Assembly: GCF_054482525.1 (NCBI RefSeq)
Contig: NZ_CM137006.1
Length of the DNA: 64,000 bases
Strand: one strand, 5' to 3'
Part shown: positions 19,171 through 42,617 of the stretch, in pieces
Position numbering within the stretch: position 1 is the stretch's first letter
Layout: each line of letters begins with the position of its first letter
The notes under the pieces: model-generated
Databases searched by the model: none
The model's input: only the letters and a program-made list of their open reading frames with translations
Told to the model about the DNA's origin: nothing
Position numbers and translations under genes: made by a program

Positions 19171-19539
19171 TCACAGCCGTGATCGGCTAAGAACAATATT
19201 ACTTACCTCCCTGTAAGAACACCGGCTCATCAGCCCGCACGCTTTCCTGGCTTGAAGAATGTCTGTCGCAGTCAAATATGGTGCTTGTACCTGAGAGGTA
19301 AATCCATTGCGATCAATACGAACTAACTCATATTTCTCTACCAGAAAGTTAACGGCATTAGCCAGAGTGATACCGGCATCGATATGCTCCTTTATAACGG
19401 TTTCATCGCTAAAAGGTGTGTCGCTTAGCATTAGGCCATAGTGCTGCTCAAGCAGACGAGTAAGTAACATTTGCCAGATTGCAACGGGCGACAGACAGGG
19501 CTTCGCCGCCCGCGAAATTGTAGCAGGTAGATTTTTCAT
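19171..19539 (-). CDS. cbtA: CbtA/YeeV/YkfI-family toxin (type IV TA)
   Basis: Start trimmed to [36 protein letters not shown], closely resembling remembered CbtA/YeeV; ATGA overlap with upstream antitoxin. Confidence 0.8.
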
Positions 19540-19877
19540 GTTTGCTCTCGTGAAATTTGTTTGCGCTGAGGGGGATAAATGGCGATGTATACGTAGCCGC
19601 AACTACCAAGGGTATCGGCTTCGCAGGTGAAACCGTTGTGGTACAGGGTGACACAGTGGGCATGGCGGGGATTCATTTCACCAGTGGTCAGCATCGATTC
19701 CATCTGACTGATAAAATGTGGAAATACGACATCCAACTTCAGGCTTTCGGCATCACTAAACTTACCGGTGATACTTGCCCGGTCAGCCAGATAGTGCAGC
19801 CGGTTGCCCTCCTGCACCAGACGTGCTCCCAGGCACGGCGTGATATCCCGCTGCAGGCCCCATGTGGGGTTGCTCAT
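19536..19877 (-). CDS. cbeA: CbeA/YeeU/YfjZ-family antitoxin
   Basis: 113 aa; [20 protein letters not shown]...[14 protein letters not shown] matches the YeeU family. Confidence 0.8.
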
Positions 19878-19894
19878 TTATAACCTCTTTATTG

Positions 19895-20116
19895 TCAGTT
19901 CAGGGTAATACTCACCAGACAGGTATAAGGTCCGTTGCGATCCTGGCGGCGTTCGACGTATACCGCCAGCACACTGGAAATGTCAGGAACCACCTTAACG
20001 GTGTATTGACAGACACTGCCATGCCACTGGTATCTGCCAGTGCAGAATCGAACAATGCGGGAGGCCGGATGCTGACGGTAAATCGTCATCGCCAGGCGTT
20101 TACTGATAATTTTCAT
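19895..20116 (-). CDS. DUF987 protein (YeeT/YkfH-like)
   Basis: MKIISKRLAMTIYRQHP...YQWHGSVCQYT resembles YeeT; conserved position upstream of cbeA. Confidence 0.65.
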   Translation of the reverse strand: MKIISKRLAMTIYRQHPASRIVRFCTGRYQWHGSVCQYTVKVVPDISSVLAVYVERRQDRNGPYTCLVSITLN

Positions 20117-20124
20117 GTAATACC

Positions 20125-20604
20125 TCAAAGCAGACCATGTTCAGCGAACGACAATATCTGCGTACCACCGACGATAAGGTGGTCGAGCACCCGGATCTCC
20201 ACCAGCATCAGTGCATGTAACAGTCGTTGAGTGATAGCCTTGTCGGCCTGGCTTGGAGTCACTTCTCCGGACGGGTGGTTATGGGCAAATATCACCGCCG
20301 CCGCATTAAAGTACAGCGCGCGTTTCACCACCTCGCGAGGATGAACCTCAGTGTGACTGATGGTGCCGGTAAAGAGCGTTTCGTGGGCAAGCAGCTGGTT
20401 CTGGTTATTGAGGTACAACACGACAAACACTTCGCGCTCAAGGGGGCCCATTTTCAGCCTGAGCCAGTCGCGGGCAGCCTGAGTCGAGGTGAATGCCACA
20501 CCCGGTTCTAGCAAGTGCTGGTCAAGCAGAACCAAGGCTCGCTTAATGGTACGCAGTGCTGGTAACGGCAGTTCAGGTGTAAACATAGTCAGTTGTTTCG
20601 CCAT
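20125..20604 (-). CDS. RadC-like JAB-domain protein (YeeS/YkfG-like)
   Basis: JAMM-like motif HNHPSGEVTPSQADKAIT; 159 aa. Confidence 0.75.
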   Translation of the reverse strand: MAKQLTMFTPELPLPALRTIKRALVLLDQHLLEPGVAFTSTQAARDWLRLKMGPLEREVFVVLYLNNQNQLLAHETLFTGTISHTEVHPREVVKRALYFNAAAVIFAHNHPSGEVTPSQADKAITQRLLHALMLVEIRVLDHLIVGGTQILSFAEHGLL

Positions 20605-21032: not shown

Positions 21033-22230
21033 TGATCCTACCCGCGTAATGTGGACACGCTCCTAAGCGAGATTCTGGTTTTCAAACTGTTTCGGGCTGA
21101 GGCCGCCATAATCGCTGTGACGCCGCCAGCGATTGTAATCGCACTTAATCCGCCGTCCGCATGATTTCCCGGCTGATAAAGCGTTCTCCGTGGATACACT
21201 CGACTTTTAACGAGTGTAAGAAGCTTTCCGCACAGGCATTATCATAACAGCAACCTTTTGCGCTCATGCTGCCATGCAGATTATGTCGTTTCAGCAGAGC
21301 CTGATAATCCGCTGAGCAGTACTGCCCGCCACGGTCGGTGTGAATTCGCCGCCACAGCGCCATCTGCAGTGCATCACAGGCAAGTTCTGCCGTTATTTGC
21401 GAGGACACCAACTAGCCAATAATAGCACGCGACCACCAGTCTATAACCACGGCAAAGTATAACAAGCTTTCATCGATGCGAAGGTACGTGATGTCACCAG
21501 CCCACTTCTGGTCCGAGCCACTAGATCTGAAGTCCTGCTTCAGCAGATTCTCCGGCACTGGCTGGTCGTGAGCACAGTAGATTAACGGGCTGAACAGACG
21601 TGAGGTTTTTGCCCGCAGGCCCTGACGACGCGAACTGTTGCTATCGTTTTGATGTTGTATTCCGGCGGCTCGTCTGCAAGACGAGCCGCACCATAACGCT
21701 GTTTTGCCTCAACGAATACCTTACAGACAGCTTCATTGAAGACGCACCGGAACTGTTGCCGATGGCTCAGTTGGGGACGACGCAGACACCAGGTATACCA
21801 GCAGCTGTGCGCCACGCACAGCACCCGACACATAGCTTTGATACTGAACTCAACCTGATATTTTTCGATAAAGATATACTTCATTTCAGGCGCTACGCGA
21901 AGTATGTCGCGCCCTTTTGGAGAATAGCCAACTCATTATCCCGCTCAGCCAGTTGACGTTTGAGGCAGGCAATCTCCGCTGCTTGTGCGCTCTCTCTCAG
22001 AGGATATTGTCTGGTGCAGTTGTTTGTAGAGCTGGGAATCGTAAAGGCTGAGTTCACGGGCGGTAGTGGCCACACCGAGACGTTCGGCCAACTTAAGGGC
22101 TTCTTCACGAAATTCAGGCGTGTGTTGTTTGCGTGACTTTTGTTGATTGATGCTGATTTTGTCATGTGAGCTACCTCTGATTGAGAGTTTACTCGCTTAG
22201 TCCCGTGTCCACTATTGGTGGGTAGGATCA
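21033..22230 (-). mobile_element. Degraded IS3-family insertion sequence (frameshifted orfA, interrupted orfB)
   Basis: Terminal inverted repeats tgatcctaccc (21033) and gggtaggatca (22220); ORFs 21893..22231, 21582..21884 and 21145..21411 match InsE C-terminus ([23 protein letters not shown]) and InsF N- and C-terminal parts, but not as continuous frames. Confidence 0.75.
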
Positions 22231-22579: not shown

Positions 22580-24313
22580 ATGTACATAGCAAAAATTAAA
22601 TTTACAAATTTCAAATCATTCAAAGAGATGTCTTTTGAGTGCAATGATAAATTCAACATAATTGTTGGTGAAAATAATATTGGTAAAAGCACATTATTTG
22701 AGGGGGTAAGTTTATGGAAATATGCTTATGACAACCTTATTCAAGAAAAAAACAAAAACAAATTCTACAAAGCTTCAACTAACTACTACATTACCTATTC
22801 TACACTCGATCAAATAAGACTTGTTGACGATATTGATATTTTTAACGACCCAAAGAATAGCTCCGCATCAATATGCATTACAATTAAAGATGAACAAAAT
22901 GAATTTGATTTAGAGATTAGATTTGAAAAGCCAGGGATTAAAAATTCATACTTACGGATATTTAATAGCAATGGTTCTGATAATGACACACAGTTTTCAA
23001 ACTTTGAACGATTCTCAAACTATATAAAAGAAAAGGATTGCACTCTAAAAGATGCCATTTACATTTACCAAACAAGACCAATATCAACTATTTTTAGAGA
23101 TGAGCCATTTTACAATAATGCGCAGATAGAGAAAAAAATAAATATTGGAAAGTCACATGATGTCTTAAGGAATAAAATATTAAAAACCGAAAATACTCAA
23201 GCCACAAGGGTTGCACAAAAATTTGAAAATCTTGAGATTCGCCTACAAAAAGTCCTTGGTGAAAACTATATCTTAAAATTTAAGAATAGAAATCGAATCG
23301 ATGATGAGTATGTTAAAATAACTGCAACAAAGGAAAACGGGAAAGAATTGGAAATATCACTTATGGGTAGTGGTTTTTTGCAAGTCTTAGAGATATTTTC
23401 AACAATTGAGTATATGGAAAAGAATTCAACCGGTATTAACCTCATTCTTATCGATGAGCCTGATTCACATATCCACTCAAATTTACAAGCAAATTTAATT
23501 GACGAACTAAAGCAACAAACAGCATGTCAAATTTTTGTCATAACACATAATGACAGACTAACATCAAAAGCTAATGAAGGTGAGCTTTTTTATCTAAATC
23601 AGATAGTTAAGGATCTTGGTTTATTGTCTCACCTTGAAATATCTGATTATTCAAAAGTTAAAGATGGTCTAGCTAATGTACTAACAGCTATAAATGATGG
23701 AGATGAAACACCCATTGTTATAACTGAAGGAAAAACGGACCAGAAAATTTTAACAACTGCTTGGGAAAAGCTAAACCCAGGAACTCCTATGCCTTTTAAA
23801 ATAATTTCATCCGGCATTCAAATTGAAGAGGAAAAAAGAACTGGGTGCGCAGAGGCAGTTAGAAGATCTTTAGAATACATTTCAACATTAACTGATAGAA
23901 CAATTATCGGTTTATTTGATAATGATCGGGAGGGAAATGAGCAGTTCAAAGGATTAAATCGTTCTATTTTTGAACCTCATGACCTGCAAAATAACTCCCG
24001 AAAACATCAGATAAAAAATATCTATGGGCTTATTCTTCCCGTTCCTGTGCATAGAGAACGTTTTGTACAAAACAATTCTTTAACGCAGCGTTACTTCGTA
24101 ATTGAACAATATTTCCAAGATGAAATATTACTACAGCATAACATGAAAGGTGAGTCAATATTAGGTACTGAGGTATTTTTTGTTAATGACTCAAGAAAGA
24201 ATGAGTTTTCAGAGTCAACCAATGACCTTCCGGTAGAATGCTTTGGGGATTTTAGTATTTTATTCGATAAAATTTCCGATTTATTGGCTAACAATAGACC
24301 AGAAAACACTTGA
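22580..24313 (+). CDS. OLD-family ATP-dependent endonuclease (ABC-type ATPase + C-terminal TOPRIM)
   Basis: Walker A GENNIGKST, Walker B/H-loop LILIDEPDSHIH, TOPRIM glutamate IVITEGKTD and DxD motif FDNDREG; 577 aa; strongly AT-rich codon usage. Confidence 0.7.
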   Translation: MYIAKIKFTNFKSFKEMSFECNDKFNIIVGENNIGKSTLFEGVSLWKYAYDNLIQEKNKNKFYKASTNYYITYSTLDQIRLVDDIDIFNDPKNSSASICITIKDEQNEFDLEIRFEKPGIKNSYLRIFNSNGSDNDTQFSNFERFSNYIKEKDCTLKDAIYIYQTRPISTIFRDEPFYNNAQIEKKINIGKSHDVLRNKILKTENTQATRVAQKFENLEIRLQKVLGENYILKFKNRNRIDDEYVKITATKENGKELEISLMGSGFLQVLEIFSTIEYMEKNSTGINLILIDEPDSHIHSNLQANLIDELKQQTACQIFVITHNDRLTSKANEGELFYLNQIVKDLGLLSHLEISDYSKVKDGLANVLTAINDGDETPIVITEGKTDQKILTTAWEKLNPGTPMPFKIISSGIQIEEEKRTGCAEAVRRSLEYISTLTDRTIIGLFDNDREGNEQFKGLNRSIFEPHDLQNNSRKHQIKNIYGLILPVPVHRERFVQNNSLTQRYFVIEQYFQDEILLQHNMKGESILGTEVFFVNDSRKNEFSESTNDLPVECFGDFSILFDKISDLLANNRPENT

Positions 24314-25088
24314 TACTGTACTGCATTTTCCATATCGAGCTAAAACGGACCATTCGCTTTTAAAGTGATTACGGCATACGGGACAGATTTTCCTTAAAGC
24401 AAACGTCTCCTTCACGCCCTGAGACATTCGACATTAAGTAAGAACGGGGGTGCGCCTCGAGTGCCAGCAAATATTTTGCTTCGTCGTAGCGGGTTCTGGT
24501 CATCCAGCAGCTGTAAATGATCCTTATCCATTTATACGCCAGAGCCCAAATGGCTGATTGATGCGATTTTCCTTTTCTTCGCAGCTCTTACTAATAAAGT
24601 CTGGCCCAGAATGATGAGTTAATCGTCTTTGCAGCCCATTCCACGAATGTCTGTCGGACGAGCTCCGCACATTGCCAACATCAGTGTACCCAAGATTTCT
24701 GGCCGCTTTGTTCTGTCACCGGAAAAATACCTGCGTAGTTTTGAATTTCTTCAGCGCAGTTTAACTGGTCACGGTTACTTGAAGAAAGAAACTGACCACT
24801 GCGCTCGTCGTTCGGAAGTGCCAGGGCTATCGGTGGATATTAAGGGAAACCTGACAGCCGGAGGTAATCAGGGTTATTAATGCCGTCAGTGTGGGCCCCG
24901 CTACCAGTGAAACACTAATGTATTGATTAAGTTTCATATTCTTCCTTAATGAAAATAAGCATGTTTTCTTTTGCTAAATCAGTCGTCGTTGGCGATGAAA
25001 CCGGCTCACACATCACGCGATTGTTAAATGAAAAAGCCCCTATTGCGTGAGCAACAGGGGCTATATTTATTTTGTGTCTATAGAGGCA

Positions 25089-25499
25089 TCAGTAACCAGT
25101 TTTAACCTTGTACATCAATAGTGTTTTACTGCCCCGGACAATTTTCACATACAGGGCATTATCTTTCGTGCCTCGCACAAAACCGGCCTGCACATCGCCC
25201 TTACAGTCACCACCGTCGTAAGGAATATTGACACCTGTCTGACGCACCAGATCAATAACCCCGAAGCTTAAGTCCTCACAGGCCGGGCCCGGCAGGTCCT
25301 GAATCAGGGCAAATTTATGGTCGTCGCTGACACCGGTCAGTGAGCACATGGAGGTATTGATGTCGTTTCCCTGGCACCAGTACTCCTGACCGGGATTATC
25401 TTTATCCATCAGACTTGCCGGAAGCTGAGCGGCACCGGCACTGAAGGCGGCAAGTGACAGAATGAGGGCGGGTACAGCAGAGGTCATTATTTTCAGCAT
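25089..25499 (-). CDS. Hypothetical secreted Cys-containing protein
   Basis: Signal peptide MLKIMTSAVPALILSLAAFSAGAA; 136 aa. Confidence 0.5.
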   Translation of the reverse strand: MLKIMTSAVPALILSLAAFSAGAAQLPASLMDKDNPGQEYWCQGNDINTSMCSLTGVSDDHKFALIQDLPGPACEDLSFGVIDLVRQTGVNIPYDGGDCKGDVQAGFVRGTKDNALYVKIVRGSKTLLMYKVKTGY

Positions 25500-25565
25500 G
25501 GTTTTCTTCCTGAATTAATCCAGCCCGCTGTCGGGCAAAATGAGGGAGGTTGGTATCGGGTATTA

Positions 25566-26003
25566 TCAGAAGCGCCGGTAGCGAAACAGCTCTTTGCCCT
25601 GGTAAAGTGCCACCAGGTCGTCATATTCCGGCTTCTTCTGGTTGGGCTTAAAGGTCACTACCGTGCCCGGACGGCACAGATCTTTTACGGTGAGACCGAA
25701 TTTCCTATCCGGAGTAATGGTGAATCCCTTCGACACATCGTTGTGCATGATAGTTATCCAGCCCCACAGGCCGCCTTCGCAGTCCTTAAAGGGTGCTGAA
25801 CGAACTGTTACCATCCCACCCAGGCGGTCAACAGACATGGCTTCACATTTTCCGGTAACCTGTCGATGCGCATCACACCAGAAAATATTCCCGTTGTTGT
25901 CATTGACGACTGCAGGTAGCGTTCGGTTATAAGGCTGAGCCTGAGCGCCCACACAGAGCAGAAGGCTGCCGGTAATACCCAGTACTTTAATCAGTGTTTT
26001 CAT
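25566..26003 (-). CDS. Hypothetical secreted Cys-containing protein (possible paralog of 25089..25499)
   Basis: Start trimmed to MKTLIKVLGITGSLLLCVGAQA signal peptide; similar size and Cys/Trp spacing to the neighbour. Confidence 0.5.
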   Translation of the reverse strand: MKTLIKVLGITGSLLLCVGAQAQPYNRTLPAVVNDNNGNIFWCDAHRQVTGKCEAMSVDRLGGMVTVRSAPFKDCEGGLWGWITIMHNDVSKGFTITPDRKFGLTVKDLCRPGTVVTFKPNQKKPEYDDLVALYQGKELFRYRRF

Positions 26004-26044
26004 TACGTTGGTCCTTAACAGAGAAAGAATCAGGTAGCAGTCAT

Positions 26045-26581
26045 TCAGGCCCAGACGGTCAGGCCCAGCATCAAAAGCCATACCCAGAAGTAAGCCGGTT
26101 TCTGACCGAGAGTTTTCGCCCGCCGCCACAAATAGAACGGCACCAGCCAGGCCAGTTTGCCGAACGTGGTAGTGTCCACTCCGGCCTTACGAAGGCGTCG
26201 TTCATCGAGATACCCCAGAGCGATATTGAGCAGCAGCGTGATAAACCAGTACTGCCCACCCGAGACGGCATCATATGCCTCGTCAAATGACATCCCGCTC
26301 AATCCTGCAGTCCACAACTCCAGCGCGTAGCCAATGAAGGGAGCAAATGCAAGCGTCCACACAACGCCACCCGGAATGCGGTTCCCCGTCAGCGCTGGCG
26401 GTGTGGTGCTGTGGAGCAGCGCCGAAGCCAGCGGGGTGGCGGAGACCGGTTGCCAGTCCGGCATGCCCTGTCGCCACACCAGCGTGGCAGCGGTGAGTTC
26501 ACCGCGCTTAATCAGGTTAGTGATGTCGTCTTCGGTCACATTGTCGTGACGTATGCCATTTTTCTCGTAATGCCAGGTCAT
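26045..26581 (-). CDS. Membrane protein with N-terminal DUF4339/GYF-like domain
   Basis: N-terminus WHYEKNGIRHDNVTEDDITNLIKRGELTAATLVWRQGMPDWQPV followed by hydrophobic helices. Confidence 0.5.
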   Translation of the reverse strand: MTWHYEKNGIRHDNVTEDDITNLIKRGELTAATLVWRQGMPDWQPVSATPLASALLHSTTPPALTGNRIPGGVVWTLAFAPFIGYALELWTAGLSGMSFDEAYDAVSGGQYWFITLLLNIALGYLDERRLRKAGVDTTTFGKLAWLVPFYLWRRAKTLGQKPAYFWVWLLMLGLTVWA

Positions 26582-26606
26582 TGTTTTTCCTTCTTAACAG
26601 AGGTAA

Positions 26607-27317
26607 TTAAATCAGTGTATTGCCATGCTCCTCCTCAGAGGGCCCATGAGACAGGACTTCGCGAATACAGCTGAAGTGCGGAAGAGCCCGAATAAAGCCC
26701 GCCTGTGTGGTTAACTGGCTGAGACGTTTTCGCGGGGTAAAAGTGGTGTTCAGGACTGTCACCGCATGGATGGTCGCCAGAGGGTGCACAGTGATATGCC
26801 CGTTAAGTTCACCGGTGAGGTACCAGCAGCCGTCGAGTGATATCAGGCGGTACGGAGCCAGCCCGTCACAGCGCTCTCCCTCGGCCAGCAGCAGTACCCG
26901 CTGGCAGGCGGTAATGGCACTGACGAGACGGTAGAACACCAGTGAGATGGTCGGTGACACAGACTGTGGCGGCTGCCATACCAGACACGGCATCCCTCCC
27001 GCAGTGAGCAACATGCCCGCCAGACGCCGGTCCAGCCCCGGAAAAATATCGGCCAGTCCGGCCCGGTGTGCGAAGGTCAGCGCATCAAGCTCCCCCTGTA
27101 CGCCCCCACCGGTGCTGCGCAGGCGGCATTGCCCCCGTCGATACTCAAGGTCGAGGTACATCAGCCGTTCGCGAAAATCCCGTCGCAGGGTACGGACTGA
27201 CACACCAAACTCTGCAGCCAGCCGCGCCATGTTCAGCGTTTCACCGGCAACCAGGCGGCTGATTATCAGTGACAGCCTGACAGCCAGCCGGTCATGACGG
27301 CGATCTGCCTGTGTCAT
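26607..27317 (-). CDS. HTH + WYL-domain transcriptional regulator
   Basis: N-terminal HTH (LNMARLAAEFGVSVRTLRRDF) and WYL motif (LISLDGCWYLTGE). Confidence 0.7.
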   Translation of the reverse strand: MTQADRRHDRLAVRLSLIISRLVAGETLNMARLAAEFGVSVRTLRRDFRERLMYLDLEYRRGQCRLRSTGGGVQGELDALTFAHRAGLADIFPGLDRRLAGMLLTAGGMPCLVWQPPQSVSPTISLVFYRLVSAITACQRVLLLAEGERCDGLAPYRLISLDGCWYLTGELNGHITVHPLATIHAVTVLNTTFTPRKRLSQLTTQAGFIRALPHFSCIREVLSHGPSEEEHGNTLI

Positions 27318-27525
27318 CTTAAATCTCCGTAATAATTAACTGACTGAATATGAAATGATTCTAAAGAGGGGGGCGGACAGGGTATGGACACGGAATGAAC
27401 TATTTTTTATCTGCCACCGGAAGCAGGTCTGACGCGGTGCTCCGTGAAATACGATGAAAAAACACCCAATCAAATGGAGGTAAAACGGACAGGGAGTGTC
27501 CTTTCCCAACATACTGATAACAAGC

Positions 27526-28365
27526 TCAGGACTGAAATCCACTCAACATCGCTTCTGCCATCACCCAGAGAGCCCGGTTGAGCTTCACATCTCCGTCGAT
27601 ACCACGCACGGCGCGGGTATGCGTTCGCCCGCCTTTCGCACTCCGACCACTGAGCCCGCCCTTAATCAGGTTCTCCTGAATACGCTGATATGTGGTCCAC
27701 AGATCATTGCTCTCATCCTGCCAGCGGCGTGGGGAGAGTATCTGAGGTGCTGTCACTGGCTGGTGGTCCTCACCGAAACGGTACGTCAGTGCAGCCTGTG
27801 CCAGAGCCTGTTGTGCAGGTGGCGGCAGCATCAGCGACTGCATGGCATCCCGCTTCTCTTCCACACGGTCAAAAATACCCAGTACTTCATACGCCCCCTC
27901 AATCACCTGACTCACAACATCTCCTTTGTGCGGCACACGCACCTCGCCAAACGACTCACCGCAGACAAGCCCGTTCTGGCATACCGCGCGGAATAATCCC
28001 GGCAGCATCTGATACGAGCTGGTGCCGTCATGAGAGTTGAGCAGAATGATTTCCGGGACTTGCTTGCCGGTAATTTGCCCCTCCCGACGCAGGCGCAGCA
28101 TGTGCTTTGTGTGGTCGCGGCGACCTGGGTCACGCACTCTGGTCTGACAGGCAAAGAAGGGCTGAAAGCCTTCGCGCTGCAGACTGTCGAGGAGAGAAAT
28201 CGTGGGTATATATGTGTACCGTTCACTGCGAGATTCGTGTTTGTCCTCGCTGAAAACACTGGGCACTACACGAAATAGCTCTTCGCGGGTTAACGGACGG
28301 TCACGACGGATAAGATTTGATGCGCCAAAGCGCGAAGCCAGACGGGTCATAAGCAGACTCCTCAT
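27526..28365 (-). CDS. DUF932-family protein (YfjQ/YafZ-like)
   Basis: 279 aa; resembles the CP4-type prophage proteins YfjQ/YafZ; sits next to the YfjP-like GTPase as in CP4-57. Confidence 0.55.
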   Translation of the reverse strand: MRSLLMTRLASRFGASNLIRRDRPLTREELFRVVPSVFSEDKHESRSERYTYIPTISLLDSLQREGFQPFFACQTRVRDPGRRDHTKHMLRLRREGQITGKQVPEIILLNSHDGTSSYQMLPGLFRAVCQNGLVCGESFGEVRVPHKGDVVSQVIEGAYEVLGIFDRVEEKRDAMQSLMLPPPAQQALAQAALTYRFGEDHQPVTAPQILSPRRWQDESNDLWTTYQRIQENLIKGGLSGRSAKGGRTHTRAVRGIDGDVKLNRALWVMAEAMLSGFQS

Positions 28366-28445
28366 GATGGGAAAATAAAGACAGAAAAGCCCTACCGCTC
28401 AATCGCGGCAGGGCTCAGGAAACTACGGGTTAGAAGGGTTAATGT

Positions 28446-29309
28446 TCAGAAGAAGAAGTTCCAGACTGCACGAGCGACCGATACCACGATGTCGCGTACA
28501 GACTGGATGACAGTCCGAACCGGGGACGGTATCAGGGGCATGGAACTTACTGTATCCAGTACCGAGCCGACCGTTTCACCAAAATCGTCGCGGGCTTTTT
28601 TATTAATGGCATCGGTACGAAGTGGATCACTAAGCTGTACCGCCACCGGACTACTGGCCTCCCGCGGCAGGCAATGAATCATCCGTTCAGCCATTACCCG
28701 CAGCCCCCATTGCAAACGTACCGACACCGCACAGACAGGGTTAACAGGTTGGAACAACTCATGCAGTAGACAGATTTTGCGGCTGATATTTTGTTTCTGC
28801 TCTGTAGACAGCTTTTCACCACCGCTGGTGGGTTCAACCTTGTCGGACTGACTGATAACAAACAACACCTTATGCCGGTATGCTTCACCAATCACCTGCA
28901 GGTAAAAATGTTCATCCACCGCTAGTGCTCGATCATCGGCCTTAATCAGCCACAGTACCAGATCGAGTTGCGTCAGTTGCTGGCGATACATCGCAGCATA
29001 TTCCGCATCACGACTTTTGCTTTCACCGACACCGGGCAGATCTACTATGGTCATAAAGCGTTCGCCAACTTGCAGGCGAAAGCGCAAAGGTTCGCGTGTG
29101 CAGGCGCTCACATCGCTGACCGGAGAGATTTTTCCGGCAAACAGCGCATTACAGAGTGATGATTTACCCGACCCGGTTTTCCCCATAATGCCGATCACCG
29201 GCTCATAGTGAGTAAGCTGGTTTACCTGTTGCAGAATACGCTCTGATGCCCACTGCGGCAGGCCAGAAAGCGATTGCTGCAGCGACTGCAAACCTTCAGA
29301 TTTTTTCAT
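28446..29309 (-). CDS. GTPase, YfjP/YkfA/YeeP family
   Basis: P-loop GIMGKTGSGKSSLCNALF, DLPG switch motif; start trimmed to MKKSEGL. Confidence 0.75.
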   Translation of the reverse strand: MKKSEGLQSLQQSLSGLPQWASERILQQVNQLTHYEPVIGIMGKTGSGKSSLCNALFAGKISPVSDVSACTREPLRFRLQVGERFMTIVDLPGVGESKSRDAEYAAMYRQQLTQLDLVLWLIKADDRALAVDEHFYLQVIGEAYRHKVLFVISQSDKVEPTSGGEKLSTEQKQNISRKICLLHELFQPVNPVCAVSVRLQWGLRVMAERMIHCLPREASSPVAVQLSDPLRTDAINKKARDDFGETVGSVLDTVSSMPLIPSPVRTVIQSVRDIVVSVARAVWNFFF

Positions 29310-29431
29310 CACGGTTCCTCTGAAATAAAAAAAACGGCAGAACAATGGAGTTCAGCCGTTAATGAGGTATGTTCAGGGTAATGATATATATCTGTTTCTT
29401 TTTCAGATAAACCCGCGCAATCGATTAGAGA

Positions 29432-30490
29432 TCAGGAATGCGCCCTGACTTTTTCTGTTTTTACCATTAATCCGGCATACTCACGTTCAATAAGTGAGGA
29501 CATTAAATCTGACTCAGACTCACCATATATTTCTGACAGTCTGGCGAGTTTCTTTTTAGTTCTGGCTGAAATTTTTATTGTCATATCGTTCTCTTTAGAC
29601 TGTCTGCGAAACAGTTTCTGATCCCAGGCTTTTTGCAGTTCACCCATCAGGACTGCTTTATGTCGCAGGGGAGAGCGCGGAAGCGTCAGTAAATCAGCGA
29701 AGTTCTGACTCATTTTTTTTCGATTTCCCTTTAAATAACTCAGTTGCTCATGAGTCCAGCCCTCCCACTGATCAAAAGTAGCACAAATAAAAAGCCAGCG
29801 TTGATAGTTATTCAGCGGATTTATCGGAGGGCAAACCGCCTTCTTTTTCATCAGGTTCCATACCCACAAGCACTGTTTTTCATCATTGATATCCAGCCAT
29901 GAAAAAGCTTCAGGAAAGTCACCACAGGCCTGTCCCCATGCAGTATTTATTGCTTTTATTAGCTTGCGCCGGGTTTCAGTTTCTGCATCACAGAGTTCTC
30001 TTAATACACACTCAAAAACATCATCAACTCCAGTTGCCATTTCCCTCATGAATGGTGAGTAAATCCCATTGGCGTAATAAAAATCTGGCGGCATCATCTT
30101 TTTTGGAGTGGACATTTTACCCAGGGTTGATTTTTCAGAAGCTGATTCAAGGTTTGTGTTTAATATGTTTTCTAACAGCTCATCACCTTCATAACCCTTA
30201 CCTTCATTTGTTTGATTAAAATTAAATTCTGGCATCATTCCTGGAAGTGTTGCTGCTTTATTTTTTTCAATACTTAGCTCAATTGACTCCGTCCCCAGAG
30301 CCCTAGCAGATATCTGACTGGGTTCGTCTATATGATCCTGGCGAACAACTGCTGACCTCCACTCACTCAGAAAACGAGCAATATAGAAAAAATAGAAACA
30401 TGCGGCACGGGGATTTTTATCAAGCCACCTCAGCTTCTTTTTTAATAACTTGTATTTTTCTTGAGCGCCCAGCGCCTTCTCTTTGCTCAT
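29432..30490 (-). CDS. Hypothetical protein with C-terminal ribbon-helix-helix-like segment
   Basis: 352 aa; C-terminus MTIKISARTKKKLARLSEIYGESESDLMSSLIEREY looks like a CopG/RHH fold; no other recognisable motif. Confidence 0.45.
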   Translation of the reverse strand: MSKEKALGAQEKYKLLKKKLRWLDKNPRAACFYFFYIARFLSEWRSAVVRQDHIDEPSQISARALGTESIELSIEKNKAATLPGMMPEFNFNQTNEGKGYEGDELLENILNTNLESASEKSTLGKMSTPKKMMPPDFYYANGIYSPFMREMATGVDDVFECVLRELCDAETETRRKLIKAINTAWGQACGDFPEAFSWLDINDEKQCLWVWNLMKKKAVCPPINPLNNYQRWLFICATFDQWEGWTHEQLSYLKGNRKKMSQNFADLLTLPRSPLRHKAVLMGELQKAWDQKLFRRQSKENDMTIKISARTKKKLARLSEIYGESESDLMSSLIEREYAGLMVKTEKVRAHS

Positions 30491-31466
30491 TATTCACCCA
30501 GATTCAGTTTCCATTAATGATGTCATTATGATGTAAAACCATAGGCAATCAACAGGAAAAAATGTAATTTCAAGAGTGAGTAATGATGAATCAATGTATT
30601 TTTTTCGTAGTAGATTCGTAGTAAGATATCGCGTGGCAAAACACTAATTATCAACAGGTTGTAAGTGCTCCCTTCCTCAGACTACCATTACCAATATGGG
30701 ACTGCAGTATGAAGACCCTGGCATGTGAAGTTAAACAACAACGACATGACATTCGTGATGTTGCCATGCGTTGGGGAGTGCAAATCAAACGACCTGCGTC
30801 ATTCCTTCATCAGGATTTCTGCTACCCTGATAGGGTCAGCACCTCCGCACACTTCGTGACAATCGCAACATCAGATGACACCCGATGCGATTGCTGATAT
30901 CGCATTCGTGTTGTTTTCGATAATTAAGGTTAATTAATAATATAGTGCATAGTGCCTGCCCTTTCTCATCCATGCCCCATTTTACCCTTGGACCGTGTTT
31001 CAACATATTTACATTCAGTACCTGTTTCTCCACGCGCTATCTTCCCTGCAAAAAAAAACAGTACCAGGCAATCCTTTGAGCAAAAACCAAAGGATTACTG
31101 AAATACAAAAACACTACCCATCTTTCCAGAATATTATCCCTGATGATTGCCTTCTCAACATGATTAATCACCACCTTAATCAGATGCTGGAACGTTACTC
31201 AAAGATTCTGGCTTTTCGCATGGACTTCAGTTACCGGAAAGGAATCAATAGGTATATCCGTAATTCCGCCCTTGAAATATAGGATGTTCTTCGCGAGTTA
31301 ATGCCATCCATTTTAACCAAAGATGCGTCTGTGGCTGTTTTTGGGCGTTAGAATGGACAAGAGAAGGTGCAGTGCACTCACATGCCATTTTTTATATCAA
31401 TGGACAAAATCATAAGAAATCATTCCCTTTTGTACTGGAGGCAAAAAGCATGTGGTTAAAAATCTC

Positions 31467-31490
31467 GAAGGAAGAAGGAAGAAGGAAGAA
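31467..31490. repeat. Tandem hexamer repeat (gaagga x4)
   Basis: gaaggaagaaggaagaaggaagaa read directly, in the non-coding region upstream of alpA. Confidence 0.6.
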
Positions 31491-31783
31491 TAAAATGGTG
31501 TCCGGCGGATAGTTATCACAGGGATACTATAAACAGAATAGTGGAATAAAAAAATGAGGTTGATGTGCAGAGTTTGAGACGGATAGCCAGCTATCAGACA
31601 AAAGAAGACCAGAAATATGGATTACCAATATGGGGATACAACGAAATTAATTTGCCCGCCAGACAGGGCAGACCGAGGAAGTTTAGTTAGTTTTTTACAG
31701 CAGCACCGGTTGCTATGCCGGAGTGGGTAGTAGTAATTCATCACTGGACTCCGGTACTTATTTAGCTACCGGAGAATCAAATC

Positions 31784-31996
31784 ATGACCAGTAAACCTTC
31801 CTTGTCCGAAGACCAGTTCGTTGATATGGCTTTTATCACCCGCCTGCTGGGGGTCAGCGATAAATGGATTTACCGACTCATTAAGGATGGCATATTTCCA
31901 AAACCCATCAAACTGGGACGAAGCTCCCGCTGGTTACAAAGCGAAGTCGAAGCCTGGCTGCAGGCCCGTATTGATGCATCCCGCCCTCAACACTAA
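31784..31996 (+). CDS. alpA: AlpA-family phage regulatory protein / excisionase-like
   Basis: 70 aa; VDMAFITRLLGVSDKWIYRLIKDGIFPKPIKLGRSSRW is the classic AlpA HTH. Confidence 0.8.
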   Translation: MTSKPSLSEDQFVDMAFITRLLGVSDKWIYRLIKDGIFPKPIKLGRSSRWLQSEVEAWLQARIDASRPQH

Positions 31997-32097
31997 ACCC
32001 TTTCCCGTTCGTTAACAAACAAGTGCGCCATCTCATATCCGCTCCTTGCGGAGGCTTACGTCTGCATGTCAGTTACTCATTAAAGGAATATCAGAAA

Positions 32098-32630
32098 TGA
32101 ACAATTCACCCTTACTCAACCATTACCAGGCCTGGCTGGATGATTTTACCCGCGTCAGTCTGTTCCACGGTTTATGCCAGAAGCACATCTCGCAGTGGCA
32201 CAGGCTGGCGATAACCGCCTGCCCGATGCCAGGCAGTAGCGTAACAGAAGTCGTCATTCCACAGTGTCTGCTGCCGGTTACCCGCACCAGTCGACTGGGA
32301 TCATGTACTGTCGCCCCCGGTCTGACTAAACACATCGATTATGCCCTTCTGCCCGGTGTGCTGCTCAGCGAATGTTATCGACTGGGGAAAAGTCGGCTGG
32401 CAGACCAGTTACAGATGTTATTCCGGCTTAATGTACAGTCCGGTATGCGCCAGGCGCTGATCCTGCTGTGCTGGTGTGAGCTGGCAACAGGTAAGGATAT
32501 GGAGGAATGGTATGCGCTGCATCTGCCACTGCCTGACACGCTGACGCAATGGTTGGCAGTAAAACAGCGGGCATACCGGGGACTGAAGACGCTGACTGAC
32601 GGTTACATTCGTGCCACCCAGCCGATGTGA
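32098..32630 (+). CDS. Hypothetical protein
   Basis: ORF with start trimmed to MNNSPLLNHY; no recognisable domain; operonic with alpA. Confidence 0.4.
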
Positions 32631-34753: not shown

Positions 34754-36853
34754 ATGAACCGAGAGCAAGCCCAACAACTGCTGCAGACTGCTTTGGCTAA
34801 CCCTGCTGCTGAATTTCGTGATGGTCAGTGGGAAGCCATTGATGCATTGGTTAATCGTCGTCAGAAACTACTGGTTGTACAGCGTACCGGCTGGGGTAAG
34901 AGCTCGGTTTATTTTATTAGTACTAAAATCTTCCGTGACCGCGAGATGGGGCCTACGATTATTGTATCGCCACTGCTTGCATTAATGCGTAACCAGATTG
35001 ATTCAGCGCAGCGTTTGGGAATAGTTGCCGAAACAATGAATTCGGCTAATAGGGAGGATTGGCAGGCTGTAACTCAACGAATTCTCAATAACCAAATAGA
35101 CTGTTTGCTCATTTCCCCAGAGCGGCTAGCAAATGATACCTTTATTGAGACGGTCCTTCAGCCCATTGCCGATCGAATCGCCCTAATGGTAATTGACGAA
35201 GCACACTGTATTTCAGATTGGGGTCATGATTTTCGTCCTGATTATCGCCGTATCGTAAATATCCTTCGTCAATTGCCCGCCAACACCCCAGTACTAGGTA
35301 CGACTGCAACTGCCAATAACCGAGTTGTTGACGATATCCAAGCCCAGCTTGGGGATATACAAATCCACCGAGGTCCTCTTACTCGCGAAAGCCTCGCTCT
35401 GCATACAATGTCTTTACCCGATCAGGCATCTCGTTTAGCTTGGCTCGCCCAAGTTATTCCGATGCTACATGGAACAGGCATTATTTACGCATTAACAGTT
35501 CGTGATGCCGAGCAGGTGGCAGAATGGTTGAGCATGCACGGTATAGTTGCCATGGCATACCACGGTAGCATCGAGGCTGAAGGTTTTGAGAACAGCAATG
35601 CTTACCGTCAGTACTTAGAAGAATTGTTACTTAACAACCAGCTTAAGGTTTTAGTAGCAACGACCGCGTTGGGTATGGGTTATGATAAACCTGATTTAAG
35701 TTTTGTAATCCATTACCAAGCTCCGAGTTCAATTGTTGCATACTACCAGCAGGTGGGTCGGGCTGGGCGCGGTATTGCTCATGCAACAGGTGTACTGATG
35801 TCGGGGATAGAAGATAACGACATCCATGATTTTTTCCGTGATTCTGCATTTCCATCGGAGGATCAAGTTAACGATATTCTTCGAGTGTTGGAAAATAATG
35901 ATGGTCTATCACTCCGCAACATCGAGGAAAAAACTAACCTACGCCACGGCCAGATTGAGAAAGTACTTAAGTTACTGAGTGTAGAAAATCCAGCCCCCAT
36001 CATTAAAAATGAAAATCGTTGGGTTAGGACCACAGTTCGCTATCAAATGGATCATGCCCGAATTGCTCATTTGACAGGACAACGTATTCAGGAATGGGAA
36101 GAGGTTCAAGCGTACCTTACCGACACTGGATGCAAAATGGCATTTCTACGTCGTTCTCTGGACGATCTCGACCCAACTCCATGTGGTAAATGCTCGTCCT
36201 GTATTGGTCAACCAATTATAAATCAAATCATTGACCCTGCTTTGGTACATCGTGCAGGGACTTTCCTAAAACATGCAGAAATGCCGATTACTCCAAAAGC
36301 TCAGGTAGCAGCTAATGCTTTTTTGCAATATGGCTTCAGCGGCAATTTGCCACAGCAGATTAGAGCACAAGAAGGTCGAGTGTTGTCTCGCTGGGGAGAT
36401 GCTGGTTGGGGACGGTTAGTAGCCGATAATAAACGTGCAGATCACTTTGATGATGAGCTAGTGGTTGCTATGGCCGAGATGATTCAGCAGCGTTGGCAAC
36501 CGAATCCAGCGCCACAATGGGTATGCTGTGTACCTTCACGCAATCATGTACAATTAGTCCCTGATTTCGCTCGCCGCTTGGCGGCATGTTTGAGGTTGCC
36601 TTTTTTCAATGCCATCAGCAAGGTTAGAGATAACCAACCTCAAAAGGGGCAACAAAACCGTTTCCATCAATGCCGCAATCTGGACGGTGCTTTTGAGATA
36701 AATCAACCTCTACCTAACACACCGGTTCTACTTGTAGATGACATTGTAGATTCAGGCTGGACGTTAACTGTCATCGCAGCACTCCTACAACGCGCAGGTA
36801 GTGGTAAAGTATACCCTGTTGCACTTGCTTCATCTTCGGTAAAAGACTCATGA
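34754..36853 (+). CDS. RecQ-family helicase fused to a C-terminal phosphoribosyltransferase-like domain (PsyrT-like)
   Basis: Helicase motifs GWGKS (I), DEAH (II), TATA (III), QQVGRAGR (VI); C-terminal type-I PRTase motif VLLVDDIVDSGWTLT. Confidence 0.8.
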   Translation: MNREQAQQLLQTALANPAAEFRDGQWEAIDALVNRRQKLLVVQRTGWGKSSVYFISTKIFRDREMGPTIIVSPLLALMRNQIDSAQRLGIVAETMNSANREDWQAVTQRILNNQIDCLLISPERLANDTFIETVLQPIADRIALMVIDEAHCISDWGHDFRPDYRRIVNILRQLPANTPVLGTTATANNRVVDDIQAQLGDIQIHRGPLTRESLALHTMSLPDQASRLAWLAQVIPMLHGTGIIYALTVRDAEQVAEWLSMHGIVAMAYHGSIEAEGFENSNAYRQYLEELLLNNQLKVLVATTALGMGYDKPDLSFVIHYQAPSSIVAYYQQVGRAGRGIAHATGVLMSGIEDNDIHDFFRDSAFPSEDQVNDILRVLENNDGLSLRNIEEKTNLRHGQIEKVLKLLSVENPAPIIKNENRWVRTTVRYQMDHARIAHLTGQRIQEWEEVQAYLTDTGCKMAFLRRSLDDLDPTPCGKCSSCIGQPIINQIIDPALVHRAGTFLKHAEMPITPKAQVAANAFLQYGFSGNLPQQIRAQEGRVLSRWGDAGWGRLVADNKRADHFDDELVVAMAEMIQQRWQPNPAPQWVCCVPSRNHVQLVPDFARRLAACLRLPFFNAISKVRDNQPQKGQQNRFHQCRNLDGAFEINQPLPNTPVLLVDDIVDSGWTLTVIAALLQRAGSGKVYPVALASSSVKDS

Positions 36854-38175
36854 ATGTATCTAACTTATTGTCAAAAACAGCCCAGGCGACCTTACTTCTG
36901 ACTAGTTATTTTTCTAAAGCAACTAGCGAAAACGCCAAACCACTTTCCAACGCCGAATGGGGACGTTTTGCGCTATGGTTGAAAGAAAAAGCAGTTACGC
37001 CAGCTGACTTGTTGGACTCTGATCCTCAAACCTTACTGAATGGCTGGTACGACTCCCGTATCAGTACGGATCGGATCATTGAGTTGATGAATCGAGGACA
37101 TAGCCTCGCTTTGGCTATGGAGAAATGGCAACGGGCAGGCTTGTGGGTAGTGACACGTTCTGATCCAGAATATCCATGGAGATTAAAACATCGGCTTAAA
37201 ACAGACTCTCCCCCTGTTTTATTTGGCTGTGGCAATAAAGCCTTATTAAATAGAGGGGGATTGGCTGTCATTGGTTCTCGAAATGCCAATGCATCAGACC
37301 TTACTTTTACTGATCACATCGGCGTTAAAGCTGCGGACGAAAATATAGCTGTTGTATCTGGTGCTGCACGTGGAGTAGACGAAACAGCCATGTTAGGTGC
37401 AATGAGGCAAGGTGGAGTTGTAATCGGGATTTTGGCAGATAGCCTGTTAAAAGCTGCGACTAGTGCCAAATGGCGCAAGGGGCTTATGAATGACCATGTT
37501 GTGCTAATATCCCCTTTTTACCCTGAGGCTGGTTTCTATGCGGGAAATGCCATGGCTCGCAATAAATATATCTATTGCTTGTCGGATAGTGCATTGGTTA
37601 TTCATTCTGGTCGAAAAGGTGGAACAATTAGTGGGGCAGAGGAAAATCTTAAGAAAGGATGGGTGCCACTATGGGTCAATCCAACAACCGATCTAGATTC
37701 AGCTAATGCTGACTTAGTGAGCAAAGGGGGACATTGGTTGCCAAGTGATAGTAATGGCCTATCCATCGAGAATTTGCTTAAAAATAATGACAGATCAAAA
37801 ATGCAGTTAAAAGCAGAGCCCCAAGATCTTTTTTCAGAATTGTCGCATCCAGAATTAATTATTGGATCTGCAGAGAAATCGTCAACTCAAGCTCTCGAAA
37901 AAGATTGGACTGCTACTATTAATGAAGAAACTCCCAACCTAATAACTACGGAAAAAAAATTAGAGGAAAAAGAGTTAGATGTAAATCCTATAGACTTTTA
38001 TCTGCTATTCAGGACAGAATTACAGCGATTGGCCGAACATCCAATTACAGTAGATAGGTTGACAGAAGTCACTGGGTTGAATAAATCGCAAGTGCTTGAT
38101 TGGTTGAAACGTGCTGAACAAGATGGTTTGGTAAAAAAACTAAACCGTCCTACAAGATATCAATTAAATGAGTAG
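36850..38175 (+). CDS. DprA/Smf-like Rossmann-fold protein with C-terminal winged helix (PsyrA/ShosA-like)
   Basis: DprA core LAVIGSRNA...VVSGAARGVDETAMLGA...GGTI; ATGA start/stop overlap with the upstream helicase gene. Confidence 0.75.
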   Translation: MNVSNLLSKTAQATLLLTSYFSKATSENAKPLSNAEWGRFALWLKEKAVTPADLLDSDPQTLLNGWYDSRISTDRIIELMNRGHSLALAMEKWQRAGLWVVTRSDPEYPWRLKHRLKTDSPPVLFGCGNKALLNRGGLAVIGSRNANASDLTFTDHIGVKAADENIAVVSGAARGVDETAMLGAMRQGGVVIGILADSLLKAATSAKWRKGLMNDHVVLISPFYPEAGFYAGNAMARNKYIYCLSDSALVIHSGRKGGTISGAEENLKKGWVPLWVNPTTDLDSANADLVSKGGHWLPSDSNGLSIENLLKNNDRSKMQLKAEPQDLFSELSHPELIIGSAEKSSTQALEKDWTATINEETPNLITTEKKLEEKELDVNPIDFYLLFRTELQRLAEHPITVDRLTEVTGLNKSQVLDWLKRAEQDGLVKKLNRPTRYQLNE

Positions 38176-38356: not shown

Positions 38357-39346
38357 TTATGTCTTTCTTTCAAGTGCAACTCCTAGATCCGCTGCCATTT
38401 TTTGGATTAGCCTCCAATCTAGCGGCCATTCTTTTTCTAAAGTAGATCTCCGTCTTTTGATTAACCAGTAAACGAAAATAACAACGCTTTGTTCAAAGAA
38501 ACTACTCCCTTCTTTGCCATCCTGAATTAGTAGTTCGAGCTCAGGAGTCTCTTCTATAAATTGATGTAATCTTTCTATCGTATCGGGTTTGATCACTTCT
38601 TTAAATGTATCTAGAATTAATAAAGTCGATTTTTGATTGTTTGGTTTATTCTTTGTTAAAGCTATGTAGATATTATCTAAAGTTCGCTGAATTCCTGCGT
38701 AACCATCAGATGCTGCGTTAATTGCTTTCGATACTGAACAGAAAAAATCATCCGTAGTTTCTATTAACGCCATGCTTTTTGCTACAGTTCTATGTATATC
38801 TGGTTCAACTATAGTTTTTGCTTTATATATGGCATCATGAGTTAACTCGGCATAGGCATGTTGTAATAAAGATCTAACCTGTATCTCACATGGAATGCCT
38901 TGTTCAATGATAACTCCATTATAATCAAAGGATTCTTTTGCAGTTACTATAAAATGTACGGATTGATACGTGAAAATTAATGGTGTATTTAATCTTTCTT
39001 CTTCGTAGTGTCTTGATGTCTTATAATGCCATTTATTACTACTTTTTATTATTTCACATATTTCATCTATATCTGAAGTAAGTAAAACGACAAACCTGAT
39101 GCCAACTTTATCTTCAATCTCTTGGTAGGGGTTTTTGTATGATTTTTCTTTTCGATGAAAAGCTTTATCGATTAGAGATGTCTTTTCTTTTATTCTCGGT
39201 GTCGCAGGTTGCTTGAGAAAGCTATTGAGGTCCCGCTCTTTATTTTCTGAGAGTTCTTTGCAAATATTTGAGACGACAAAATCTCCCCATGCTTTATACA
39301 TGGGTAGTTCTTTTTCCCAAAGTTGCGAAAACTCTAATTCATTCAT
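38357..39346 (-). CDS. RelA/SpoT-fold nucleotidyltransferase (toxSAS-like)
   Basis: Synthetase-domain signature PRIKEKTSLIDKAFHRKE, GIRFVV, YQSVHFIV and CEIQVRSLLQHAYAELTHDAIYK (EIQIRT..QHxWAE..H..YK); AT-rich. Confidence 0.7.
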   Translation of the reverse strand: MNELEFSQLWEKELPMYKAWGDFVVSNICKELSENKERDLNSFLKQPATPRIKEKTSLIDKAFHRKEKSYKNPYQEIEDKVGIRFVVLLTSDIDEICEIIKSSNKWHYKTSRHYEEERLNTPLIFTYQSVHFIVTAKESFDYNGVIIEQGIPCEIQVRSLLQHAYAELTHDAIYKAKTIVEPDIHRTVAKSMALIETTDDFFCSVSKAINAASDGYAGIQRTLDNIYIALTKNKPNNQKSTLLILDTFKEVIKPDTIERLHQFIEETPELELLIQDGKEGSSFFEQSVVIFVYWLIKRRRSTLEKEWPLDWRLIQKMAADLGVALERKT

Positions 39347-39354
39347 TAATTAGC

Positions 39355-40446: not shown

Positions 40447-40463
40447 TTCTGTGTAGTTCCATC

Positions 40464-42534: not shown

Positions 42535-42558
42535 TTTGAAATGGTGCCGATAATAGGA
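42535..42558. repeat. Proximal att-like repeat overlapping the tRNA-Thr 3' end
   Basis: tttgaaatggtgccgataatagga; partner at 18971..18992. Confidence 0.5.
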
Positions 42559-42617
42559 GTCGAACCTACGACCTTCGCATTACGAATGCGCTGCTCTACC
42601 AACTGAGCTATATCGGC
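42542..42617 (-). tRNA. thrW: tRNA-Thr (anticodon CGU)
   Basis: Reverse complement reads GCCGATATAGCTCAGTTGGTAGAGCAGCGCATTCGTAATGCG...TTCGACTCC...CACCA: cloverleaf arms, CGT anticodon in the loop, encoded CCA. Confidence 0.85.

Follow-up and report, generated by a model that had tools for sequence, protein, structure and literature searches.

Two regions of the Escherichia coli K-12 chromosome, CP4-57 and CP4-6, carry the closest described relatives of the genes considered here, namely yfjP-yfjQ-yfjR(-ypjK-yfjS-yfjT) in the former and ykfA-yafZ(-ykfK pseudogene) in the latter. The regulators most similar in predicted fold to the YfjR-like protein of this study, CapW, BrxR, DriD, and PafBC, share with it an N-terminal winged helix-turn-helix (HTH), a helical linker, and an SH3-like WYL barrel bearing a W-Y-L triad. 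CapW and BrxR are repressors of CBASS and BREX, and DriD and PafBC are activators switched on by single-stranded DNA. In CapW, BrxR, and DriD, the barrel is followed by a WCX domain of ~100 residues (residues 193-297 in CapW; PMC11662680), which dimerises and contributes to the pocket for single-stranded DNA (ssDNA) (PMC11662680, PMC9186387), and ssDNA is the demonstrated ligand of CapW, DriD, and PafBC (PMC11662680, PMC9186387). Here, we analysed a 64-kb stretch of contig NZ_CM137006.1 (64,000 nucleotides, hereafter the window), whose list of open reading frames (ORFs) contains three intact ORFs at 26607-29309, all on the minus strand, encoding in order of transcription a GTPase, a DUF932 protein, and an HTH regulator. 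Taking the evidence together, we consider it fairly probable that these are backbone genes of a CP4-57/CP4-6-type island, comprising a self-regulating YfjR operon, a DUF932 establishment factor, and a stand-alone GTPase.

The span of the three genes runs exactly from the stop codon of the regulator to the ATG of the GTPase, and E. coli SCU-102 (NZ_CP051753.1) has a chromosomal segment of 100% identity whose products RefSeq names 'GTPase family protein', 'DUF932 domain-containing protein', and 'DeoR family transcriptional regulator'. The GTPase shares 82% identity with YfjP and 79% with YkfA, the DUF932 protein 94% with YfjQ and 96% with YafZ, and the regulator 58% with YfjR. The three genes are orthologous to yfjP, yfjQ, and yfjR over their full length, and their order and strand relationship are those of the K-12 modules. 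A preliminary description of this DNA, made from the letters alone, had named a WYL-domain regulator, a DUF932 protein, and a YfjP-like GTPase at these positions and had stated that the last two recur as a pair in CP4-type cryptic prophages (yfjQ/yfjP, yafZ/ykfA); the assignments and their coordinates are correct, and the recurrence holds for CP4-57 (yfjP/yfjQ) and CP4-6 (ykfA/yafZ). The trio consists of already annotated genes that have been catalogued in K-12 for decades, and its rediscovery is ordinary. The spacers are also alike, with 208 bp between the DUF932 gene and the regulator gene (~216 bp in K-12) and 95 bp between the GTPase and DUF932 genes (~91 bp in K-12), and the boxes, the -10 element, and the terminator hairpin described below are common to this island and the K-12 module. 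In contrast, the C-terminal two-thirds of the regulator are divergent from K-12 YfjR, and the genes 3' of it are unrelated to K-12 ypjK, yfjS, and yfjT. In CP4-6, only the first 62-67 codons of a yfjR homologue are left (ykfK, 6768-6968 of locus L003), 97% identical to YfjR, so the K-12 ykfA/yafZ pair has lost its WYL regulator.

With regard to the regulator, the match to HTH_DeoR in Pfam is barely above the cutoff (22.1 bits versus 21), and the match to the WYL family (PF13280) covers only the second half of the model and lies below the gathering threshold (13.2 bits versus 21.8, E = 0.093). A phmmer search against the Protein Data Bank (PDB) returned nothing meaningful. Nevertheless, judged from its sequence and its predicted fold, the regulator is a WYL protein, as the preliminary description had labelled it. 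The PADLOC WYL model PDLC01457 matches the protein over its full length (residues 10-225 aligned with model positions 1-218 of 229, E = 2.2e-19), PF13280 is found in homologues that share 55-65% identity across 94% of the protein, the W165-Y166-L167 triad is invariant in a 36-sequence alignment, and the best solved match of the family profile is to the WYL domains of PafBC (6sj9, E = 2.3e-4). The AlphaFold model, with a mean predicted local distance difference test score (pLDDT) of 81.5 and values above 90 across residues 130-220, comprises a winged HTH at residues 1-66 (helices at 3-51 and a beta-hairpin at 57-66), a helical linker at 72-136, and a five-strand WYL beta-barrel at 139-192, and all of its top 20 Foldseek matches in the PDB are HTH-WYL regulators (PafBC, CapW, DriD, BrxR). 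By sequence alignment mapping, the arginines on either side of the triad in CapW and BrxR (RWHVR) give way to C/x and T/V/I here, with x-W-Y-L-[TVIA] as the family pattern, and the R-x-F-R-type strand of PafBC and DriD, which reads R-x-F-R-L-D-R in PafBC, corresponds to V-x-[FH]-[TP]-L-x-x-I in the YfjR family. The loss of these triad-flanking and next-strand arginines explains the weak Pfam score.

After the barrel, the model exhibits only two short helices (197-202 and 206-223) before the chain ends at residue 236. As modelled, the regulator is a short form with no WCX domain, and its length is 236 residues versus ~270-330 for the regulators with winged HTH, WYL, and WCX domains. Because the WCX domain and several ssDNA-contacting arginines are absent, the ssDNA ligand of CapW, DriD, and PafBC is not simply transferable to YfjR. 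A C-terminal motif, F-x3-L-P-H-F (residues 208-215, window ~26673-26696), is invariant in 36/36 YfjR-family sequences and is placed where the other regulators have their WCX domain. At the other end of the protein, the HTH hardly varies among genera whose proteins share 55% identity overall. The generic WYL accessory model PDLC01457 is the regulator's only PADLOC match, and the CRISPR-associated HTH-WYL proteins that it represents have this short two-domain architecture as well; in contrast to these, no CRISPR-Cas locus is annotated in the neighbourhood, and the regulator is tied to the island backbone instead.

The DNA 5' of nine diverged yfjR homologues was aligned, and its conservation proved to be concentrated in two blocks, O1 and O2, the intervening sequence being ~50-60% conserved. 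O1 is a perfect palindrome, GGACA-N5-TGTCC, and the sole exact match to this pattern in the window. It is conserved in the 9 diverged loci at -173 to -181 from the ATG of the yfjR homologue, and the exact palindrome occurs once per locus of 8-25 kb, always 181-187 nt 5' of the regulator ATG. O2, TGTCCATACCCTGTCC, whose left arm is a degenerate GGACA, is likewise the only exact match in the window and is the best conserved intergenic block, with a column identity of 0.91. On a Citrobacter plasmid, both sites are clean xGACA-N5-TGTCx palindromes. The O1-O2 spacing is 110-112 bp in 9/9 loci, or ~ten helical turns, and the repeat CGGACAGGG is present twice, 112 bp apart. No comparable box was found upstream of the GTPase or DUF932 gene, elsewhere in the island, or in 19 related loci other than at the regulator. 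If bound, these candidate palindromic operators at the regulator's own promoter would be a feature shared with the regulators that contain winged HTH, WYL, and WCX domains.

A hexamer located 11 bases 3' of O2 reads TAGAAT here and TAAAAT in most loci, and as its T, A, A, and T are invariant (first-sequence positions 168, 169, 171, and 173 of alignment A3), we take it to be the -10 element. Just 5' of O2 lies an invariant A-tract, ATAAAAAATAG. No match to a -35 element was observed at yfjR, and a scan with the sigma-70 consensus gave no full promoter. Transcription would start near 27351, which would place O2 at about -39 to -24, a position that fits a class-II activator or an occluding repressor. 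A proximal box in place of the -35 element resembles the layout of PafBC and DriD promoters. K-12 yfjR, too, has no predicted promoter despite strong expression (PMC9308461), and a compilation of genomic SELEX (gSELEX) data by Ishihama gives the 'yfjR operon' as a YfjR target (PMC8249747). Based on these observations, YfjR most likely controls its own operon, with the conserved boxes as candidate operators. In the proposed mechanism, YfjR would bind as a dimer to the two boxes in its own upstream region, the distal box being separated from the proximal one by a distance at which looping is possible, and would thereby autoregulate the operon that it heads. The layout would fit class-II-type activation, as for DriD and PafBC, or promoter occlusion, as for CapW and BrxR, and activation is slightly favoured over repression because the -35 element is missing. 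The WYL domain would gate DNA binding via a ligand, which cannot be assumed to be ssDNA.

The gaps 3' of the regulator are short (25, 41, and 66 bp, versus the 208 bp that precede it), and a strong terminator-like hairpin closes the block after the third downstream gene. The three genes encode a GYF_2 protein and two phrog_8968 proteins, of which the 145-aa protein is a weak paralogue of the 136-aa protein. BLAST comparisons of the three with K-12 ypjK, yfjS, yfjT, yafY, and ykfB gave no matches, a relaxed Pfam search likewise gave none, and PADLOC had no match for any of them. The genes directly after the regulator vary by locus, with spacings that range from an overlap to a gap of ~270 bp; they mostly encode small envelope or secreted proteins rather than known defence systems, examples being YpjK/YfjS/YfjT, IrmA-like proteins, or an AIDA-type autotransporter. 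The operon would carry variable and mostly envelope-directed cargo. The absence of a recognised defence or DNA-damage regulon 3' of the regulator distinguishes it from CapW, BrxR, DriD, and PafBC.

The DUF932 protein shows a strong match to PF06067 (E = 5.3e-53, 180.6 bits versus a cutoff of 23). The ORF list offers an ATG at 28365, whereas RefSeq and the alignments of homologues place the start at 28350. On the F plasmid, an ORF at 64438-65259 encodes a DUF932 protein of 273 aa with 68% identity to the window protein over 265 residues. This ORF closes the leading region, with a 95-aa ORF on one side and, on the other, an oppositely oriented SLT gene beside oriT and traM, and the IncFIA plasmid pHNEC46 exhibits the same layout. 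According to Couturier et al. (PMC9849209), ygfA is nearest to oriT and in the opposite orientation, followed by ygeA, and Frpo1 lies upstream of ygeA and ygeB. As gene order and orientation match this description, the F ORF is, by position, ygeA. YgeA is made early and transiently, in a Frpo1-dependent manner, while the plasmid is single-stranded, and transconjugants reached 3.9% with the ygeA deletion versus 92.6% (PMC9849209). YgeA and its IncF and IncI homologues have the same length and belong to the same Pfam family as the island protein, and island and plasmid copies both reside on elements with RadC and toxin-antitoxin genes, to which related islands add antirestriction genes. Unlike F ygeA, the island gene is preceded by a terminator hairpin. 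On the basis of this homology, it is most economical to regard the DUF932 genes of such islands as related to a conjugative establishment factor, and the island protein would act as such a factor for DNA arriving by conjugation.

An alignment built from a homologue search of a representative library revealed invariant residues in the DUF932 family, namely P30, C124, N126, H141, E226, G231, and an NSHDG motif, which hint at an active or metal-binding site. The AlphaFold model has a pLDDT of 94.1, no solved relative of its fold was found in PDB searches, and PADLOC gave no match. Among phages, 27 records contain homologues of 38-43% identity, and most of these records are of jumbo phages of ~355-368 kb. 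In the listed jumbo-phage records (H78-H89, for example Yersinia phage fHe-Yen9-04, 10292-11113), the DUF932 gene is located within ~2-18 kb of the start of the record, and this position fits a role early after DNA entry. A literature search on DUF932, yfjP/Q/R, and ykfA/yeeP/yafZ found no mechanistic study of the chromosomal genes.

The GTPase matches MMR_HSR1 (E = 1.5e-15) and Dynamin_N (E = 9e-11). It exhibits a G1 motif, GKTGSGKS, at residue 43, a G3 motif, DLPG, at residue 90, a degenerate G4 motif, SQSD, at residue 153 (versus [NT]KxD), and a hydrophobic C-terminal tail. Among solved structures, Era, Der, and MnmE come closest, with matches that span at most residues ~35-170 of 287 and leave the C-terminal part unmatched. 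PADLOC gave weak partial matches only, to the dynamin-like models LeoBC (E = 1.9e-6) and LeoA (E = 2.1e-4). We found no functional papers on YfjP, YkfA, or YeeP, so the statement in the preliminary description that the function of the GTPase/DUF932 pair is still unclear stands. The GTPase gene is often located directly after a variable slot of defence genes. We suggest that it encodes a stand-alone Era/dynamin-like protein, whose gene would mark the start of the islands' conserved arm and end in a conserved terminator. Just 5' of it, at 29432-30490 on the minus strand, is an ORF of 352 aa with a ribbon-helix-helix-like C-terminus that weakly matches the N-terminal domain of the mobilisation proteins BfmA/BtgA (E = 0.029) and no other family. 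In other loci, the slot 5' of the GTPase gene holds unannotated ORFs of 275-377 aa.

The hairpin between the GTPase and DUF932 genes has a 12-bp stem with 8 G-C pairs, followed by a T-rich tract, and is kept in 7 loci (the window, L002, L003, L012, L017, L019, and L023), with compensatory changes at 3 pairs. The DUF932 gene is the middle one of the three in E. coli, Pantoea, Dickeya, and two Citrobacter plasmids. The Klebsiella and Yersinia loci have it beyond the regulator's operon, beside antirestriction or RadC genes, and those of Photorhabdus and Plesiomonas lack it. Among the plasmid records of PLSDB, at least 5000 contain a DUF932 homologue, and 4378 of these (88%) are conjugative, versus 58 records with the regulator and 75 with the GTPase. 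Together with the restriction of the candidate boxes to the region upstream of yfjR, this makes it rather likely that the trio represents at least three separate expression units and not one system. The opposite view, in which the three genes belong to a single co-regulated module for defence, anti-defence, or transfer that the WYL protein switches, would agree with the adjacency of the three genes on one strand in the E. coli, Pantoea, Dickeya, and Citrobacter loci, with the place of the GTPase gene before the regulator gene in almost all loci, and with possible read-through into DUF932, but the relocation or absence of DUF932 in the other four genera, its excess on plasmids, the candidate boxes found only upstream of yfjR, and the conserved terminator after the GTPase gene make it improbable; in addition, PADLOC is blind to the DUF932 protein and sees only the weak Leo-type similarity in the GTPase. 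The same evidence bears on control of the DUF932/GTPase pair by the WYL gene, which the preliminary description implied and which we do not retain. The regulator gene lies 3' of both genes, behind a spacer with its own promoter-like elements and boxes, and the terminator, the mobility of DUF932, and its abundance on plasmids without the regulator speak against such control.

Several observations nevertheless weigh against our overall interpretation. With 1-2 mismatches allowed, the box patterns are not rarer than expected by chance in this one window, so the operator argument rests on conservation across loci, from which the boxes are derived as candidates. The transcription start, the -10 element, and the terminators are all predicted. 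Chromatin immunoprecipitation with exonuclease treatment (ChIP-exo) in K-12 found no YfjR binding sites under its conditions (PMC8464067), and the published binding data, gSELEX versus ChIP-exo, are in conflict. With regard to the expression units, the GTPase gene is 5' of yfjR in nearly every locus examined, and a functional link could be hidden there; moreover, the DUF932 start follows the terminator at a distance of only ~40 nt, an interval in which no promoter was seen, so DUF932 may be transcribed by read-through from the GTPase gene, and the two would then be coupled. As for the establishment factor, the F ORF was equated with ygeA from gene order and orientation and not from a sequence printed in the paper, and no Frpo-like ssDNA promoter was detected at the island DUF932 gene, a blastn comparison of the F leading region with the window matching the DUF932 coding sequence only, so the island copy may be expressed in another way than F ygeA. 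Nor are a relaxosome, oriT, ssb, or psiB annotated near the trio, although an unrecognised oriT is possible.

It is also unlikely that YfjR is a repressor of the BrxR/CapW type that controls a neighbouring anti-phage system and is released by ssDNA arising from infection or DNA damage. The predicted fold matches those of CapW, BrxR, DriD, and PafBC, for three of which ssDNA is the established ligand, but the regulator lacks the WCX domain, with which CapW and DriD build part of their ssDNA pocket, and its triad-flanking and PafBC-strand arginines are replaced. Variable defence genes do adjoin the module, including CBASS-like genes and Lit (pNDM-CIT), AbpAB and RnlAB (K-12), a methylase/helicase pair (L013), and an OLD-type nuclease (here), yet they differ by locus and sit in other transcription units, mostly beyond the GTPase gene, whereas the genes directly downstream of the regulator encode small secreted or membrane proteins with no PADLOC match. 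Control of defence genes by the WYL gene, which the preliminary description had suggested as typical of such regulators, is therefore not borne out by the genes that closely follow it. That the trio represents the decaying remnants of a dead mobile element with no current function is highly unlikely, for the K-12 label of cryptic prophage, the ~62-67 regulator codons kept in CP4-6, the insertion sequence (IS) fragments and pseudogenes nearby in the island, and the negative ChIP-exo result would agree with it, but all three ORFs are intact, the regulator HTH is almost invariant across genera, conservation extends to the non-coding boxes, to the distance between them, and to the terminator with its compensatory changes, and the DUF932 protein keeps 94-96% identity from island to island, while deletion of its plasmid homologue strongly affects conjugation.

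Table 1. Positions in the window of the three genes, the presumed yfjR operon, and the predicted regulatory elements. Positions relative to transcription refer to the predicted start.
Feature	Coordinates	Strand	Evidence and remarks
yfjP/ykfA-like Era/dynamin-type P-loop GTPase, 287 aa	28446..29309	-	MMR_HSR1, Dynamin_N, YfjP/YkfA identity
Intrinsic-terminator-like hairpin between GTPase and DUF932	28387..28416	-	terminator scan; kept in 7 loci
yfjQ/yafZ-like DUF932 protein, 274 aa, homologue of F ygeA	27526..28350	-	PF06067, YfjQ/YafZ/F identity
O1, distal candidate YfjR operator, GGACA-N5-TGTCC	27487..27501	.	palindrome; ~-150 to -136
A-tract ATAAAAAATAG, UP-element-like	27400..27410	-	invariant AAAATA columns; ~-59 to -49; putative promoter role
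O2, proximal candidate YfjR operator, TGTCCATACCCTGTCC	27375..27390	-	~-39 to -24, at -35 position
Putative -10 element TAGAAT (family consensus TAAAAT)	27358..27363	-	invariant T, A, A, T columns
yfjR-like regulator, 236 aa	26607..27317	-	HTH_DeoR, WYL evidence, fold model
GYF_2/DUF4339 protein, 178 aa, first cargo gene of presumed yfjR operon	26045..26581	-	PF14237, E = 4.4e-13
145-aa protein, hydrophobic N-terminal signal-like segment 4-22	25566..26003	-	hydropathy; phrog_8968, E = 1.2e-7
136-aa protein, hydrophobic N-terminal signal-like segment 1-26, last presumed operon gene	25089..25499	-	hydropathy; phrog_8968, E = 8.8e-31
Strong terminator-like hairpin, 12-bp stem + TTTTTCATTT, end of presumed yfjR operon	25035..25062	-	terminator scan

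The trio is embedded in ~24 kb of DNA that form an island at the tRNA-Thr gene thrW (42542-42617). This is the attachment site of CP4-6 in K-12, yet the regulator is intact and CP4-57-like. According to the RefSeq annotation of the identical SCU-102 region, the island comprises a P4-type integrase gene, an AlpA-like gene, a Gp2/YfjJ-like gene, and a RadC-DUF987-CbeA-CbtA arm. Probing with 25 nt of the thrW 3' end revealed no attR copy, so the distal boundary of the island is approximate. The preliminary description had linked the DUF932/GTPase pair with CP4-type cryptic prophages. The CP4-type part of this description holds, whereas the prophage part does not: no virion genes are annotated in the island, and as a comparison of the 2.7-kb region with 50,697 phage records gave no DNA match, 'cryptic prophage' is best regarded as the historical K-12 label for the CP4-57 and CP4-6 regions. 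An Rfam scan of 24000-32500 gave matches to CyaR and sroE only, both below threshold.

Other genes of the island deserve mention. The RadC-DUF987-CbeA-CbtA arm (19171-20586, minus strand) is adjoined by IS3 remnants and is without the KlcA/YfjX-type antirestriction gene that usually precedes RadC in related islands. At 22580-24313 on the plus strand, a gene with a G+C content of 32-35% encodes a 577-aa OLD/Gabija-like ATP-dependent nuclease, with an AAA_21 domain and PADLOC matches to NsnB, GajA, and AriAB. It is flanked by an IS3 pseudogene (21063-22165) and a transposase fragment (24453-24776), and is probably a single-gene defence cargo inserted in the island. At 34754-38175 (plus strand), the gene for a RecQ-family helicase of 699 aa shares 4 bp with a DprA gene, which is an odd pairing for a mobile element. 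Adjoining the island integrase gene, a row of consecutive genes at 38357-40931 (minus strand; G+C content of 31-34%) encodes a RelA/SpoT-like GTP pyrophosphokinase, a nucleoid-associated protein, and a SLATT-domain protein, and looks like a candidate toxic small-alarmone-synthetase or defence module.

A more far-reaching proposal, which as a whole we regard as a long shot, is that YfjR represents a distinct minimal WYL class (no WCX domain, arginine-poor, with the F-x3-L-P-H-F motif), that it responds to some signal that is not canonical ssDNA by activating a swappable envelope cassette, and that the DUF932 protein is an enzyme of a new fold acting on DNA that enters by conjugation, either to protect or to process it. 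If this were true, activation would proceed from a promoter without a -35 element through two phased boxes, the envelope cassette could serve surface exclusion, phage-receptor masking, or biofilm formation, and the chromosomal DUF932 copies would influence the establishment of plasmids in E. coli.

The residual interest of the locus lies in the biochemistry of DUF932/YgeA, in an atypical WYL regulator without a WCX domain, and in an operator layout that can be tested. The candidate operator and promoter layout of YfjR could help to settle the conflict between the gSELEX and ChIP-exo data. DUF932 genes are among the commonest uncharacterised genes on enterobacterial conjugative plasmids, and the phenotype of F YgeA is among the strongest conjugation effects reported for the leading region (PMC9849209). 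As chromosomal copies that are 94-96% identical occur in many E. coli strains, they could matter for the spread of plasmids.

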